This document shows, piece after piece, positions 8,800 through 21,453 of a DNA stretch of 25,283 bases. Source of the DNA: a virus (lineage: Duplodnaviria; Heunggongvirae; Uroviricota; Caudoviricetes); IMG/VR virus record IMGVR_UViG_2529292829_000008; one strand, 5' to 3'. Under the pieces are notes generated by a model, which worked only from the letters and a program-made list of their open reading frames with translations, made no database searches and had not been told where the DNA came from. Position 1 is the stretch's first letter. Every line of letters begins with the position of its first letter. Both the position numbers and the translations under genes were made by a program.

Positions 8800-10497
8800 A
8801 TGCATAGAATTGTTAAAGCTCATCTTGATAACTTCGTGAAAAGTCACGGTATTGAAAATCATCAAGAGGACACGCAGTTCGAGCTATTTTGTAATAAAGC
8901 TTTGCTGTCTTCTCGTATAAGTATGGATTATGAAATTGACGATGTAACAACCGGGGCTGGTGATGATGGCATGGATGGTGTTGCCATCATAATTGATGAA
9001 GAATTGTGTATATCTTCTGAAGATGCTACTTCAATATTTTCCTCATTACGTAAAAATCATGATGTTGATATTGTTTTCATTCAATCAAAGCGTAGTGAGT
9101 CTTTTGATTTAGGTGATTTTTTAAAGTTTAAAGCTTCCGTTTTTAGATTTATAGAGGATTCTCCTTACTTATGTGTGGATGAAATTCAAAAAAATGCAAG
9201 GGAAGTTTTTGATGTCATAATAAAAAATGTACCTAAGATAAGAGGTGGGCGACCAACTTTTACTGCTAAATATGTTGCAACTGGTTTATATAAAAAACCT
9301 AAAGAGTTAGAGAATGCTCGGAAGTTATTTGCAAAAGAAATTGACGAGTTGGGGTATTTCTGTAATGTTAGCGTTGAGTTTGTTGATCGTGATGAATTAA
9401 CACGTACTTGGATTGATACTTATTCAGTTGTCAATGCTGAATTGCCATTATTTAGTAATGCACCACTTCCCAAAATTAATGGTATAGAAGAAGCTTATCT
9501 TGCTGTCGTTAAAGCAAAGGATTTTGTTGGTAATTTATTGATGACGGACGAGGGGTCTCTCCGTAATCATGTTTTTGTTGAGAACGTCAGGGCGTTCTTG
9601 GGAATTGATAATCCTGTTAACGCATCGATTGCTGAGACAATTAAAAATAAAGATGCCGCTTCACGATTTCCTGTTTTAAATAATGGAATAACAATTGTTA
9701 GTCCGGATGTAAAACTTCAAGGGAGTATTTTACATCTAGAAAATTTTCAGATAGTTAATGGCTGTCAGACATCAAATGTGCTTTACGAATGCCGCGATTC
9801 CTTAGATGATACGATGATGGTTAACTTGAAAGTCGTAGAGACATTAAACGAAGATGTTTTTTCAGAATTGGTTCGAGCGACTAACAGTCAGACTAAAGTT
9901 GATGAGACTCAGTTCTATTCTCTTCGTCCAATAATAAAGAAAGTAGAAGCGTACTTTGATACTTATGAAGGGCAGGATGGTCGTTTATATTTAGAAAGAC
10001 GTGAAAGACAATTTATCGGTAGAGATATACCTGCAGTTAGAGTATTTTCAGTTCATATGGCAGCTAAATGTGTAGCAGCTATGTTCTTCCGTCGGCCAGA
10101 TCTTTCATATAGATACCCTAAAAAAATGTATGAATTGTTGGCTGAGAAAATATTTTCTAATGATACCAAGGAGATTGTATTTTATTCAGCATGTTTAACA
10201 TTATATAGATTACACTTACTTACTTCTAATGCTGATATTCCACAAAATATCAGGAAGTACAAATGGCATTTAATGGCGGTAGTTGGTGCTTTAATTGCCG
10301 GAAAGGATGTGCCTAATTTTGGATCTAAGAAAATGGATGCGTATTGTAATAAAATCATCACTGAAATGACAAAGCATGGTGATAAAATAAAAGCTACTTT
10401 CCAGAAGGCTGTTGATATTGTTTTGTCAATTGATGATATCACTGATGATAGAATGAAAAGGCAAGCTATTTTAGAGGAAATGCTTGCCAAGATTTAA
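8800..10497 (+). CDS. Low-GC cargo protein, candidate AIPR-like abortive-infection / defence protein
   Basis: 565-aa ORF, much more AT-rich than the backbone; sits between cos and the portal gene; contains ...FPVLNNGITIVSPDV...ENFQIVNGCQTSNVLYE... (DNA about 9751-9774), which I recall as resembling the conserved NGxQT core of the AIPR family. ORF call is solid; family assignment is tentative. Confidence 0.55.
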   Translation: MHRIVKAHLDNFVKSHGIENHQEDTQFELFCNKALLSSRISMDYEIDDVTTGAGDDGMDGVAIIIDEELCISSEDATSIFSSLRKNHDVDIVFIQSKRSESFDLGDFLKFKASVFRFIEDSPYLCVDEIQKNAREVFDVIIKNVPKIRGGRPTFTAKYVATGLYKKPKELENARKLFAKEIDELGYFCNVSVEFVDRDELTRTWIDTYSVVNAELPLFSNAPLPKINGIEEAYLAVVKAKDFVGNLLMTDEGSLRNHVFVENVRAFLGIDNPVNASIAETIKNKDAASRFPVLNNGITIVSPDVKLQGSILHLENFQIVNGCQTSNVLYECRDSLDDTMMVNLKVVETLNEDVFSELVRATNSQTKVDETQFYSLRPIIKKVEAYFDTYEGQDGRLYLERRERQFIGRDIPAVRVFSVHMAAKCVAAMFFRRPDLSYRYPKKMYELLAEKIFSNDTKEIVFYSACLTLYRLHLLTSNADIPQNIRKYKWHLMAVVGALIAGKDVPNFGSKKMDAYCNKIITEMTKHGDKIKATFQKAVDIVLSIDDITDDRMKRQAILEEMLAKI

Positions 10498-11619: not shown

Positions 11620-13385
11620 TAAAAAATCTCCACAATATTGCTGGTATTGGCGGATTCGCCCTGCAGCGGTTCGTTAAACAATGCGTGCATCGTTGCCCAG
11701 GCCAGATCGGCATGGCTGGCTTCTTCGCTGCGGCTGGCTTCATAGGTCGGGCGGTTGCCGCTAGCGGTGGTGGCCCGACGGATTGCCATAAAGGACTGCG
11801 CTATGTCGGTGTGCCCGGCGTCAAACTCCAGGCGGCGGTGGCTAATAATGTCGTAGGCCTTGAGTACCAGGGCGTTTTTAACGTTGGGATTGTAGACAAA
11901 CTCCCGGACGGCAGGAAAGAACGCTTTCACGTTCTCGTAAACCCCGTGGCCGACGCCAGTTGAGTCGATGCCGATGTATGTCACGTTGTACTGTTCGGTC
12001 AGTTTTTTGATGGCGTCAGCCTGGGCGCGGAAGTCCATCCCGCGCCACTGGTGACGTTCAAGAATGCGAAACTTGCCGCCCGGCACGGCTGGCGGTGCCA
12101 CCACCACGCATCCAGCGCTGTCGCCGTTTTGTGTACCTTTTGCCGGGTCATAACCGATCCACACTTCGCGCCAGCCAAACGGGCGTAGCGCCAGTGCATG
12201 AAAGTCGGTCCAGACTTCCCAGCTGTCCACCATGCACGCCTGCAGCTCGCTGAGCGGGAAGACGGACGCGAGATCGTCCACGAACTCACACATCAGCAGG
12301 TTCTGGTATTCGTCCGGGCTGTACTCCATGCGCAACTGGTCGAGATCGAACAGGTTACATCCGCCGCGCACCGCATCTTCCACGGTGACTATCTGGCGGT
12401 ATTGCCCGTCTGCGCACAGCAGGCCGGGGGCCAGATTGTTGTGGGACAGGTCGATGTCCACCTTATCGGCTTTGTTGCGCCCACGGTTGAACAGCGCACC
12501 GGACCAGAACGGATAAGCACTGTGGGTCAGGCTGGATGGTGTGGAAAAATAGGTCTGTCGCCATTTCTTGTGAATAGCCATACCGGAAGCTACTTTGCGC
12601 AGCTCCTGGAATTTCGGTATCCAGAAATATTCATCCAGATACAGGTTGCCGTGGTAACTCTGGGCAGTGCGGGCATTGGTGCCGAGGAAGTAAAGCGTGG
12701 CCCCGTTAGGAAGCACCATCGGATCGCCTTTCAGCTCCACCTCCACTTCTTTGGCGAAGTCGATGATGTACTGCTTAAAGACGTGGGCCTGAGCCTTGCT
12801 GGCGGAAAGGAAAATCTGGTTACGCCCGGTTAGCAGGGCGTCAATCAGGGCTTCACGGGCAAAATAGAAGGTCGCGCCGATCTGGCGTGACTTCAGCAGG
12901 TTGCGGATGCGGTTGGTTTTTCCGGCTTCCCACCAGTGGCGCTGGTAGTTGAACATGGAGGAATGGAAGATTTCTTCCAGCTTCTCAATCTGTTCATCGG
13001 TGAAAACGTTCTTTTCCGGCTGACGGCGCGGGCCTTTGTTGCGGTTGGCGACGTTAGGGTTTAAGTCGGCTTCGTTGCCGCCATTGTTAAACTTGCCGAT
13101 GCGCGCGTGGCGCTCCGACTGGCGCGCCAGCAGGTCAATCTCTTTGAAATCTTTCCCTTCTTTGTGCTCCTTCATAATGAGCTGGCAGTAGCGGGCGGCG
13201 GTGGTGAGCTGCATCTGATCCAGCGGCCCATAGTCACCCCACTTGTCGCGTTTCTTCCAGCTGTGAACGGTTGCAACTTTCTCGCCCAGCATTTCAGCAA
13301 TGCGGGCTACGCGATATCCCTGAAAGTACAGCAGCATGGCCTGCCGACGGGGATCGAGATCTGCGGGTGTCAGTGTGGTGTTCAT
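11619..13385 (-). CDS. P: Terminase large (ATPase) subunit (P2 gpP-like)
   Basis: 588-aa ORF directly upstream of and overlapping the portal gene start; length and position match P2 gpP. Confidence 0.9.
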   Translation of the reverse strand: MNTTLTPADLDPRRQAMLLYFQGYRVARIAEMLGEKVATVHSWKKRDKWGDYGPLDQMQLTTAARYCQLIMKEHKEGKDFKEIDLLARQSERHARIGKFNNGGNEADLNPNVANRNKGPRRQPEKNVFTDEQIEKLEEIFHSSMFNYQRHWWEAGKTNRIRNLLKSRQIGATFYFAREALIDALLTGRNQIFLSASKAQAHVFKQYIIDFAKEVEVELKGDPMVLPNGATLYFLGTNARTAQSYHGNLYLDEYFWIPKFQELRKVASGMAIHKKWRQTYFSTPSSLTHSAYPFWSGALFNRGRNKADKVDIDLSHNNLAPGLLCADGQYRQIVTVEDAVRGGCNLFDLDQLRMEYSPDEYQNLLMCEFVDDLASVFPLSELQACMVDSWEVWTDFHALALRPFGWREVWIGYDPAKGTQNGDSAGCVVVAPPAVPGGKFRILERHQWRGMDFRAQADAIKKLTEQYNVTYIGIDSTGVGHGVYENVKAFFPAVREFVYNPNVKNALVLKAYDIISHRRLEFDAGHTDIAQSFMAIRRATTASGNRPTYEASRSEEASHADLAWATMHALFNEPLQGESANTSNIVEIF

Positions 13386-13431
13386 GGCACAAACCTACAG
13401 CCTTGAATGAAGGCTTTCCCCGCCTGCGGTT

Positions 13432-13449
13432 TGTGTGGTTGTCGGTACA
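13432..13449. promoter_or_regulatory. Candidate Ogr/B-dependent late promoter element (TGT-N12-ACA) in the P/O divergent region
   Basis: TGTGTGGTTGTCGGTACA; its centre is about 55 bp upstream of a plausible start site roughly 30 nt before the O ATG (13528), the geometry of P2 late promoters. Confidence 0.5.
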
Positions 13450-18896: not shown

Positions 18897-19338
18897 ACTG
18901 CAGAAGGTGGACGACTGGCTGAGTGCCTTGCTGGCGAATCTGGAGCCAGCCGCAAGAAGCCGCATGATGCGCCAGCTGGCGCAGGAACTGCGCCGGACAC
19001 AGCAGCAGAATATCAGGATGCAGCGCAACCCTGACGGCAGCAGCTATGAACCGCGACGGGTAACAGCACGCAGTAAAAAAGGCCGTATCAAACGTCAGAT
19101 GTTTGCAAAGCTGCGCACCACAAAATACCTGAAAACTGCCGCCAGCGCGGATTCTGCCAGCGTACAGTTTGAAGGTAAGGTACAGCGCATTGCCCGCGTT
19201 CACCATTACGGCCTGCGTGATCGCGTCAGTCGAAAAGGACCGGAGGTCCGCTATGCAGAGCGCCGCTTGCTGGGTTATAGTAATAATAGTTATCTAATCG
19301 TTAGTGATTTACTAATGAAATGGCTAACGCATCGTTAG
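18889..19338 (+). CDS. S: Tail completion / virion morphogenesis protein S (P2 gpS-like), C-terminus altered at the cargo junction
   Basis: 149-aa ORF (GTG start overlapping the R stop) with ...RVHHYGLRDRVSRKGPEVRYAERRLLG...; the last ~20 codons are AT-rich, consistent with replacement by the adjacent insertion. Confidence 0.8.
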   Translation: MDELQKVDDWLSALLANLEPAARSRMMRQLAQELRRTQQQNIRMQRNPDGSSYEPRRVTARSKKGRIKRQMFAKLRTTKYLKTAASADSASVQFEGKVQRIARVHHYGLRDRVSRKGPEVRYAERRLLGYSNNSYLIVSDLLMKWLTHR

Positions 19339-19349
19339 CCATTACGAGA

Positions 19350-20795
19350 TTAATGAGTTTTAAGTGCCTCTGTTAAAGATTTTCGATGATGTTCCCAAAA
19401 GGCAAAATCATTTACGTTTGAACTAAACCTCAAATGCTCTTCAGAATATATTGTTTCACGGTGATCGCATCCAAGAAGACATAGAATTAATCTGGTTAGA
19501 TATATTGTTAAGTGTTCACAAGCAACTGCAATGTTTATCAAGTTGTCACTTGGTATAATTACACCATGTATAATTATATTTCTGATTTCAGAAAGTCCTA
19601 GCTTACCAGATTCATTAAATAATGGCCATAAGTCATGAGTATGGATTAAATGTTCTTTAAGAAATTCTTGTGTGGCATCTTTTAATGATATTCTATTCAG
19701 TTCTCCTAGTTTGCTTTTTATTTTTCCTCTAGTTGTTGAATCTTTGATAACGTCCTTGGTGATGACTCTTTCAATTGTTTGTCTTAATGATTTAAACTCG
19801 CTTTCACATAGAATGAAGGTCGTATTGTTTTTTTCTTTATGAGTTAAGATAATAGATTCAAAAGATTGGAAAAGTGAAAGGTATCGAGACTCAAGATATT
19901 GGTTTGATGCATTGAGGACATTAATGGCTAATCGGATGTTCTGTCTGTAATGGGATGACAAATATGTGTGAAACATATTTTCAATATTTTCTTTGGCTTG
20001 TGATGGCATCATTAAGTGTTCTTTTTTGGTATCCTTAATAGGATTTTTTATCCTACAGCGAAAAACTGTATATACACCATCATTAGATTTTAGGTTCAAG
20101 TAACGACAAACTACTTTGTTACTATTGATAAATGATAAGATATCATTAAATGCGTCAATTTTGTCAATGTAGTTGTTTCTTACATCATCAATGGTTAAAT
20201 TAGAATTGTTGGGCTTTATTTTTAGGATTTGTTTTGTGCTGATTTCAAATTTTTCATTGCGTTCTAGTTTTAATTCGATATCTAATTTTATATCTTCGTC
20301 ATTGTTAAGTTTAACAATAATAGACTCTGGCTTTGTAAGAGTGATGTTACCATTCGAAGATAAATTGTACTGAATGTTAGGGGAAAGTAGTTGATGGTCA
20401 CTGTTGTAGAATGTTATTTCCGTATCAGGCGTATTATGTGCTTTATTATTTATAATGACTTCATTGGGAATGATGTTAAATGTATAGTATTGAGTTTTTC
20501 CTGAGTGACGGTCGACGATGTTTTCTATTCTACAATCGATTAGTTTTATCACTGAGCGAATATCACCATTTACATAATGAGTGCAAAATTCAATGTCTAA
20601 ATTATTTTTTCCATAAAGCTTGATGGTTTTTTTACTATAGGTCTTTATCTGAATCCTATCCCAGCTTTCTTTATTGTTGACAGTAACATTGCAAGTCATT
20701 TTGATACTGTTTTCTGTTTTTATATTATCGTCATTAATAGTAATTGGGTTGTGGTCATAAGAAAAAGTAACTTTAATTGATTCATACGTGTTCAC
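19350..20795 (-). CDS. Low-GC cargo protein with C-terminal HEPN-like R-N-x3-H motif (candidate abortive-infection RNase)
   Basis: 481-aa ORF, antisense to the flanking tail genes; GTG start with perfect AAGGAG SD; very AT-rich; N/K/I-rich N-terminal two-thirds; C-terminal region contains SEIRNIIIHG (DNA 19566-19583). ORF call is solid; function is a hypothesis. Confidence 0.6.
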   Translation of the reverse strand: MNTYESIKVTFSYDHNPITINDDNIKTENSIKMTCNVTVNNKESWDRIQIKTYSKKTIKLYGKNNLDIEFCTHYVNGDIRSVIKLIDCRIENIVDRHSGKTQYYTFNIIPNEVIINNKAHNTPDTEITFYNSDHQLLSPNIQYNLSSNGNITLTKPESIIVKLNNDEDIKLDIELKLERNEKFEISTKQILKIKPNNSNLTIDDVRNNYIDKIDAFNDILSFINSNKVVCRYLNLKSNDGVYTVFRCRIKNPIKDTKKEHLMMPSQAKENIENMFHTYLSSHYRQNIRLAINVLNASNQYLESRYLSLFQSFESIILTHKEKNNTTFILCESEFKSLRQTIERVITKDVIKDSTTRGKIKSKLGELNRISLKDATQEFLKEHLIHTHDLWPLFNESGKLGLSEIRNIIIHGVIIPSDNLINIAVACEHLTIYLTRLILCLLGCDHRETIYSEEHLRFSSNVNDFAFWEHHRKSLTEALKTH

Positions 20796-20810
20796 TGATG
20801 TTTATCTCCT

Positions 20811-20828
20811 TGTGTGGTAAGCGACACA
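20811..20828. promoter_or_regulatory. Candidate Ogr/B-dependent late promoter element (TGT-N12-ACA) upstream of V
   Basis: TGTGTGGTAAGCGACACA, sharing the TGTGTGGT start with the dyad at 13432; it is unusually close to the V ATG (20875) for a -55 centre and overlaps the SD of the divergent cargo gene. Confidence 0.4.
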
Positions 20829-20874
20829 ATATTATCAAATTTTGAATTAAGAAAAAGGCTGCCATAGTTGCCTT

Positions 20875-21453
20875 ATGAACGCACAACTGACCGAAATCAT
20901 GCGCCTTATCACCAACCTGATCCGCACAGGGGTAGTTACCGAAGTGGACAGGGAAAACTGGCTTTGCCGGGTGAAAACGGGCGAGCTTGAAACCAACTGG
21001 ATTAACTGGCTGACGCTGCGTGCCGGGAATGCCCGCACATGGTGGCGACCATCGGAAGGTGAGCAGGTGGTGCTGCTGAGTCTGGGCGGAAATCTGGAAA
21101 CCGCCTTTGCGCTGCCCGCTGTCTATTCGAATCAGTTCGCACCACCGTCGACGTCGGCGGACGCCTGCGTGACAGAACATCCTGACGGTGGCTGGTTTGA
21201 ATACGAACCCGCCACCGGGCGCTGGTATGTCAGGGGCATCAAATCAATGGTCATTGAGGCCGCTGACAACATCACCATGAAAACCAGTGAGTTTGTACTG
21301 GAGGCTGACCGCACGTGCATTAACAGCGAAGTGGTGATCAATGGTGGCGTTACCCAGGGCGGCGGAGCGATGAGTTCTAACGGGATTGTGGTTGATGCGC
21401 ATCAGCATACTGGCGTCCTGAAAGGCGGCGATACAACCGGAGGCCCGGTATGA
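20875..21453 (+). CDS. V: Baseplate spike / assembly protein V (P2 gpV-like)
   Basis: 192 aa; MNAQLTEIMRLITNLIRTGVVTEVD...WLTLRAGNARTWWRPSEGEQVVLLSLGG...SSNGIVVDAHQHTG... is colinear with P2 gpV. Confidence 0.9.
   Translation: MNAQLTEIMRLITNLIRTGVVTEVDRENWLCRVKTGELETNWINWLTLRAGNARTWWRPSEGEQVVLLSLGGNLETAFALPAVYSNQFAPPSTSADACVTEHPDGGWFEYEPATGRWYVRGIKSMVIEAADNITMKTSEFVLEADRTCINSEVVINGGVTQGGGAMSSNGIVVDAHQHTGVLKGGDTTGGPV

Follow-up and report, generated by a model that had tools for sequence, protein, structure and literature searches.

A late-activator-type site upstream of a predicted leaderless V operon, carried within an exchangeable S-V cassette of P2-family phages

The S-V locus

The stretch of DNA analyzed here, 25,283 nucleotides in length and hereafter called the window, comprises most of a P2-family (Peduoviridae) prophage. 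An integrase gene on the minus strand (1-1131) is followed by a replication gene, Q and P on the minus strand, O to S, and V-W-J-I-H-G, an order that matches the P2 GenBank record and a sibling E. coli prophage (NZ_AP045805, E. coli 23CRST035) that is 98.3% identical over the S-V cassette described below. Between the replication gene and Q lies an AT-rich gene of 565 amino acids on the plus strand (8800-10497), which encodes an AbiU/AIPR abortive-infection protein (PADLOC AbiU, 4e-112; Pfam AIPR); at this position the sibling prophage encodes an AAA ATPase instead. Gene V (20875-21453, plus strand) encodes the 192-aa baseplate spike (Pfam Phage_base_V plus Apex), and the open reading frames 3' of it stand at the positions of P2 W, J, I, H and G, with product names taken from the sibling prophage.

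A leftward gene of 481 codons, here called the cargo gene (19350-20795, minus strand), lies between S and V. The GTG at 20795 is favored as its start codon by an anti-Shine-Dalgarno duplex of -8.5 kcal/mol, compared with -2.3 kcal/mol for the alternative ATG at 20785, and the corresponding Shine-Dalgarno sequence AAGGAGAT (20804-20811, minus strand) is 8 nt before the GTG. The next feature toward V is the TGT-N12-ACA dyad TGTGTGGTAAGCGACACA (20811-20828), a predicted Ogr/B/Delta-type late activator site for the V promoter (P_V), which begins only 15 nt from the cargo start codon. It had been described as overlapping the cargo ribosome-binding site, and the two do have 1 nt in common if the dyad is taken from TGT, or 2 nt if taken from TTGT, but essentially they abut.

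The cargo protein

The cargo gene product is most likely a divergent ApeA-like protein, although its membership of the ApeA family is only putative. It has no match among the 2.0 models of PADLOC or in NCBIfam, and against Pfam only a subthreshold match, with HEPN_Apea not matched; genome contigs scanned with the cargo protein and PDB sequences searched with the family profile likewise gave no match. It does match phrog_22870, whose function is not assigned. An exhaustive HMMER search gave 454 representative relatives, mostly of about 480 aa among the matches listed; relatives were taken from protein databases and from Logan/NCBI contigs. In the family alignment, R405 and H410 are invariant within RNxLIHG (R405-N-x-L-I-H410), which by sequence is the Rx4H motif of a predicted C-terminal HEPN domain. 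Pfam HEPN_Apea is matched by 14 of 60 family members, with a best E-value of 5e-10, and a UniRef cluster 91% identical to the cargo protein is named "ApeA N-terminal domain-containing". In the AlphaFold model (pLDDT 93), the N-terminal half is beta-rich, with weak matches to Hcp-like folds, and the C-terminal half is helical. ApeA itself has been reported to cleave tRNA anticodons as a ring-forming nuclease and to protect by abortive infection (bioRxiv 10.64898/2026.01.26.701840).

Position and conservation of the dyad

The dyad is TGT-GTGGTAAGCGAC-ACA, and with one more base on each side it reads TTGT...ACAA (20810-20829). The A of the V ATG (20875) is 55.5 nt from its center, in agreement with the distance of about 55 given in the preliminary description, whose sequence and coordinates are exact. 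The center is also 43.5 nt upstream of 20863, where a -10-like hexamer begins. The abundance of the motif is uninformative and its position is decisive, because the window contains three TGT-N12-ACA matches (starting at 13374, 13432 and 20811) where 6.7 are expected from shuffled sequences. The first 8 nt of the dyad, TGTGTGGT, recur in the window only at 13432, in the P/O intergenic dyad TGTGTGGTTGTCGGTACA (13432-13449), a shared P/O activator site that would be a sister site in the same regulon. This sharing had been offered as support for a common activator; it is real, but not significant by itself, since 26 of 100 shuffles give at least two copies of the 8-mer. Nor is identity of the 8-mer required, because relatives with a near-identical V use different sites, for example TGTATCAGCACTGATACA. 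A separate candidate, an RNA hairpin formed by the dyad in the cargo 5' untranslated region, was rejected because folding is no better than that of shuffles (-4.4 kcal/mol, z = 0.16).

Conservation was assessed in 84 loci with a window-type V, comprising 80 viral contigs encoding a V at least 97% identical to that of the window and four annotated phages. All 84 have a TGT-N12-ACA centered 53-58 nt, mostly 55, before the V ATG, and the other matches in the same loci amount to 21 in 589,980 nt (3.6e-5 per position). There is no gene between S and V in 59 of these loci, where the intergenic region is about 68 nt and TGTATCAGCACTGATACA occupies the same offset. In the remainder, S and V are separated by one of about 15 different cassettes, which measure 0.5-1.9 kb and have individual dyad sequences; these have no homology to one another from dyad to ATG and still keep TTGT, ACA(A) and the distance. 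An offset of 54-57 nt is common to loci with no cargo, to about 15 unrelated cargos and to P2- and 186-type phages. The comparison with relatives having an intact S-V junction, which the preliminary description had proposed, is provided by the 59 cargo-free loci, all of which carry the dyad at the same distance. That description had also considered the short distance to the ATG unusual and linked it to the insertion; the closeness is not caused by the insertion, because cargo-free loci share the geometry and it is common to the whole set.

This pattern makes it extremely improbable that the dyad is a host-factor site, such as one for CRP, or a chance palindrome. The resemblance of TGTG...CACA to CRP half-sites speaks for such an origin, as does the fact that the window contains fewer TGT-N12-ACA motifs than chance predicts. 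The CRP half-sites in TGTGA-N6-TCACA are spaced as TGT-N10-ACA, however, and the spacing in the window and in all relatives is N12. Chance would not place the motif at one offset in 84 of 84 loci in otherwise unrelated sequence, and the motif is retained in close relatives.

It is also very unlikely that the dyad serves mainly as an operator of the cargo gene, to which a repressor, or the late activator in the role of a roadblock, would bind, with its link to V being secondary. Proximity would suit such a role, since cargo transcription must cross a dyad that is 15 nt from the start at 20795, and leftward cargos close to V mostly have a cassette-specific AT-rich P_V core. Yet the motif occurs at the same offset from V in the 59 loci that have no cargo and in those with oppositely oriented cargos, and its position is fixed relative to the V ATG, whereas the cargo start varies from about 46 to 132 nt from that ATG. 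The dyad is a functional-looking element of a well-known kind, real but ordinary. The proposal that it is a second copy of the late activator site and part of the V promoter is borne out by position and conservation.

The V promoter and a predicted leaderless message

Between the dyad and V, the P_V core as predicted from the sequence and a PWM scan consists of a weak -35-like TTGAAT (20842-20847, plus strand; -33 to -28 from the V ATG), a 15-nt spacer and a -10-like CATAGT (20863-20868, plus strand; -12 to -7 from the A of the ATG). The -35-like element is poor and the spacer is short; the core falls below the threshold of the consensus scan and scores 7.6 in the PWM scan. A weak core without a good -35 is as expected of an activator-dependent late promoter. 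The anti-Shine-Dalgarno duplex of V is the weakest of the 14 late genes (-2.9 kcal/mol, the others ranging from -3.7 to -10.3), and there is no GGAG-like run just 5' of the V ATG in the cassette types compared. The start codon is ATG in 241 of 244 V homologs.

Searching with the V proteins of P2 and 186 enlarged the locus set by 160 loci, giving 66 upstream-sequence clusters. A profile of these clusters anchored on the ATG peaks at -65 to -62 (TTGT), -49 to -46 (ACAA), -35 to -33 (TTG) and -12 to -7, where the consensus is CATCCT with A at -11 in 50 of 66 and T at -7 in 58 of 66. This spacing is that of a sigma-70 promoter with its putative +1 on the A of the ATG. Taken together, it is highly probable that the dyad is the upstream activator site of P_V and that the V message is leaderless, starting at or near the A of the ATG, which is the predicted +1 of a V-W-J-I-H-G transcript. 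The site would then lie 55 nt from the start codon because transcription of V starts at that codon. On this reading, the dyad marks where the V late operon begins, and V is better annotated as a leaderless gene than as one that lacks a ribosome-binding site.

A diverged copy of the window cassette, in locus L328, provides a footprint of the region. Its cargo protein is 70% identical to that of the window and its flanking S, V and W DNA is 81-84% identical; the 79-nt spacer between cargo gene and V is 86% identical, compared with 77% for the cargo gene. There are three changes inside the dyad, all in the central N12. The invariant blocks are TGTGTGG, together with the adjoining cargo Shine-Dalgarno sequence, CACAATATTATCAAATTTTGAAT and CTGCCATAGTTGCC; the TTGAAT block, CATAGT, the cargo Shine-Dalgarno sequence and the TGATAATAT block are all unchanged.

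The L328 copy also bears on whether V is transcribed mainly from another promoter, leaving the dyad dispensable, either by read-through from the O operon or from a plus-strand sigma-70-like site at 20701-20728. This site (TTGATA-16-TATTAT) agrees with the consensus at 10 of 12 positions and is the best plus-strand match upstream of V. It lies in AT-rich coding sequence, however, a setting in which such matches are expected (five found, compared with 7.7 in shuffles), and it is destroyed in L328 (TTAAAA ... TGTTGT), for which reason it was rejected as the V promoter. A message from it would have a 140-nt leader without a Shine-Dalgarno sequence before V, and a stable hairpin at the end of S would impede read-through. 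We consider it highly improbable that transcription from elsewhere makes the dyad dispensable to V.

The common form of P_V is GC-rich and contains an inverted repeat, GCCGCCGG-N6-CCGGCGGC, between the -35 and -10 regions (-33 to -12 before the V ATG), as in loci L089, L207 and L220 and in many 186/P2-type loci. From within the V promoter, this repeat could act as a terminator for the O operon upstream.

Comparison with P2, 186 and P4

The late promoters of P2 (P_P, P_O, P_V and P_F) have in common the TGT-N12-ACA motif and dependence on the zinc-finger activator Ogr (PMC3931495). Late operons of this family number four (P-Q, O-S, V-G and F-D), and the window dyad lies directly before the third of them. 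In the P2 GenBank record, S is followed by the leftward non-essential orf30 (9439-10224), an activator site and V. The site is annotated as "activator binding site; activation of pV promoter" at 10239-10266, and the V coding sequence and the "transcription start site for V operon" are both at 10308. The same record has a single site for pO and pP, 55.5 nt from both mapped starts. A published review (PMC4633059), citing Christie & Calendar 1985, counts a P2 gene among the small number of leaderless messages described in E. coli. In the full-text literature, the start of the P2 V transcript at the ATG was found by secondary citation only, and otherwise comes from the GenBank annotation.

P2 and the window have in common the order of S, a leftward non-essential gene and V, a motif of the TGT-N12-ACA class directly after the start of the leftward gene, the class of distance to the V ATG and the lack of a Shine-Dalgarno sequence before V. 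They differ in the leftward gene, which is orf30 in P2 and ApeA-like in the window, and in the sequence from dyad to ATG, which is unrelated between the two. The cargo Shine-Dalgarno sequence abuts the dyad in the window and is 6 nt away in P2. The P_V site of P2 itself is TGT-N11-ACA centered about 58 nt before the ATG, compared with N12 and 55.5 nt in the window, and since P2's own site is off consensus, the geometry of P_V is not rigid.

The B-dependent promoters of coliphage 186 (p12/pV and pJ) and the Delta-dependent promoters of P4 have the same activator family and type of site, and B-protein sites are annotated before pV/p12 and pJ in the 186 record. The 186 homolog of P_V, upstream of orf32, has TGT-N12-CGG and a GC-rich core and is without annotation in that record. 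In its early region (CI, CII, Fil), the sibling prophage resembles 186.

A proposed mechanism for activation of P_V

The window stops in G, short of the ogr position. In the sibling prophage, D is followed by a gene for an ogr/Delta-like protein with the pattern CX2CX22CX4C. This prophage has the matching site TGTGTGGTTGTCGGTACA 87 nt 5' of the ATG of O and the site TGTGTGAATAACGACACA 85 nt 5' of the ATG of the sheath gene FI; unlike V, its O and sheath operons have leaders with a good Shine-Dalgarno sequence.

In P2, Ogr binds the dyad at about -55 and contacts the C-terminal domain of the RNA polymerase alpha subunit, as established by work on Ogr and rpoA109. By analogy, late in lytic growth of the window phage, a small Cys4 zinc-finger activator of the Ogr/B/Delta family would bind TGT-N12-ACA at about -55 and, through the same contact, bring the polymerase to the weak P_V core. 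Transcription would start no more than a base or two from the A of the V ATG, and the V-W-J-I-H-G message, with neither a 5' leader nor a Shine-Dalgarno sequence, would be translated as a leaderless message. We infer the activator dependence and the exact start point of P_V in the window phage; activator binding, the start at the ATG and the consensus are carried over from the P2 record and the literature.

The exchangeable S-V cassette

The breakpoints of the inserted segment were located by anchored comparisons with one cargo-free relative and two other cassettes. On the right, the V ATG is exactly where identity starts; 5' of it, only TTGT...ACAA and scattered bases match. On the left, homology gives out after the motif RRLLG, about 60 nt short of the stop codon of S. 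The exchangeable S-V cassette (about 19276-20874) thus takes in the final ~20 S codons, a hairpin, the cargo gene and all of P_V, and is AT-rich, with about 30-37% GC. It had been suggested that the insertion replaced sequence right up to the promoter; the exchanged segment instead includes all of P_V and the end of S as well. The cassette carries its own P_V because the exchanged segment spans from late S to the V ATG. The last ~20 S codons differ from cassette to cassette (loci L001-L246). The same cassette as in the window is present in IMG/VR locus L081, in an E. coli chromosome and in Salmonella contigs.

Every cassette variant, as judged from the sequences, rebuilds the same predicted promoter geometry from unrelated sequence. 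About 15 unrelated cassettes rebuilding one promoter represent a natural mutagenesis of an Ogr-type promoter, in which the constrained positions are revealed as TTGT, ACA(A), the 55-nt distance, A at -11 and T at -7.

The alternation of unrelated accessory genes at the S-V junction resembles the accessory and defense hotspots of P2-like phages. Hotspots within P2 tail genes are described in the available portions of published surveys, and in those portions a late promoter and the end of S traveling with the cargo are not described (PMC13586616). The S-V defense-gene cassettes are swapped as units that include an essential promoter and the last part of an essential gene, and because these travel with the cassette, the sites of recombination are constrained.

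The stop codon of S falls within a hairpin at 19319-19343, which has a perfect 11-bp stem and a 3-nt loop and is 7 nt beyond the stop codon of the cargo gene. Folding is stable for either strand (z = -4.9 and -6.0), but there is no T-run. The hairpin may terminate transcription in both directions, from the O operon and from the cargo gene.

A possible cargo promoter within P_V

The 15 nt between the cargo start codon and the dyad are too short for a promoter, so the cargo promoter must lie inside the P_V core or V and its transcript must cross the dyad. One candidate is an extended -10, TGATAATAT (20829-20837, minus strand; -46 to -38 of P_V), which is hypothetical. It is the best leftward PWM match (TGaTAATAT), but it is no better than chance, as 177 of 500 shuffles score as well, and the best leftward matches across the cassettes are at scattered positions. 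The TGATAATAT block is unchanged in L328, but a part in P_V accounts for this equally well.

Where a leftward cargo has its start no more than about 130 nt from V, the P_V core is mostly AT-rich and specific to the cassette; the common GC-rich core ttgccgc...ggcggcatccttcccc is retained where the cargo points rightward or has its start over 170 nt from V. This orientation pattern fits a shared back-to-back promoter region, and interference between P_V and a cargo promoter is plausible from the arrangement of the sequence. A more specific arrangement, in which the 46 bp between the dyad and the V ATG would be both the P_V core and a constitutive leftward cargo promoter, the latter occluded by activator and polymerase at P_V, is possible and rather doubtful. 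Were it true, the cargo transcript would begin in or next to the dyad, and an abortive-infection nuclease would be made in the lysogen and shut off when the prophage goes lytic, so that cargo expression would possibly be coupled to the switch between lysogeny and lysis. The same would apply to P2 orf30 and to most leftward hotspot cargos, and would explain why these have AT-rich P_V versions of their own.

The P/O site and the P-Q operon

The geometry of P_V recurs at the P/O site. The start codon of the terminase gene P (13385, minus strand) is 46 nt from the edge of the P/O dyad, the center of which is 55 nt before the ATG, and this offset is exactly 55 in 79 of 79 relatives with a P at least 95% identical. 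There is an in-frame stop three codons upstream of the P ATG, and TAGGTT is found at -12 to -7. Because the P offset is as in P_V, the P-Q operon of the window lineage is predicted from sequence to be a second leaderless late operon, which would differ from that of P2, where P has a 23-nt leader. A further TGT-N12-ACA, TGTGGTGTTCATGGCACA at 13374-13391, is 58 nt from the P/O site and overlaps the start codon of P; with several matches expected per window, it is probably due to chance. The codons immediately following the AUG are CA-rich both in V (20878-20890, AACGCACAACTG) and in P (13370-13382, AACACCACACTG), and downstream CA repeats have been reported to enhance the translation of leaderless messages.
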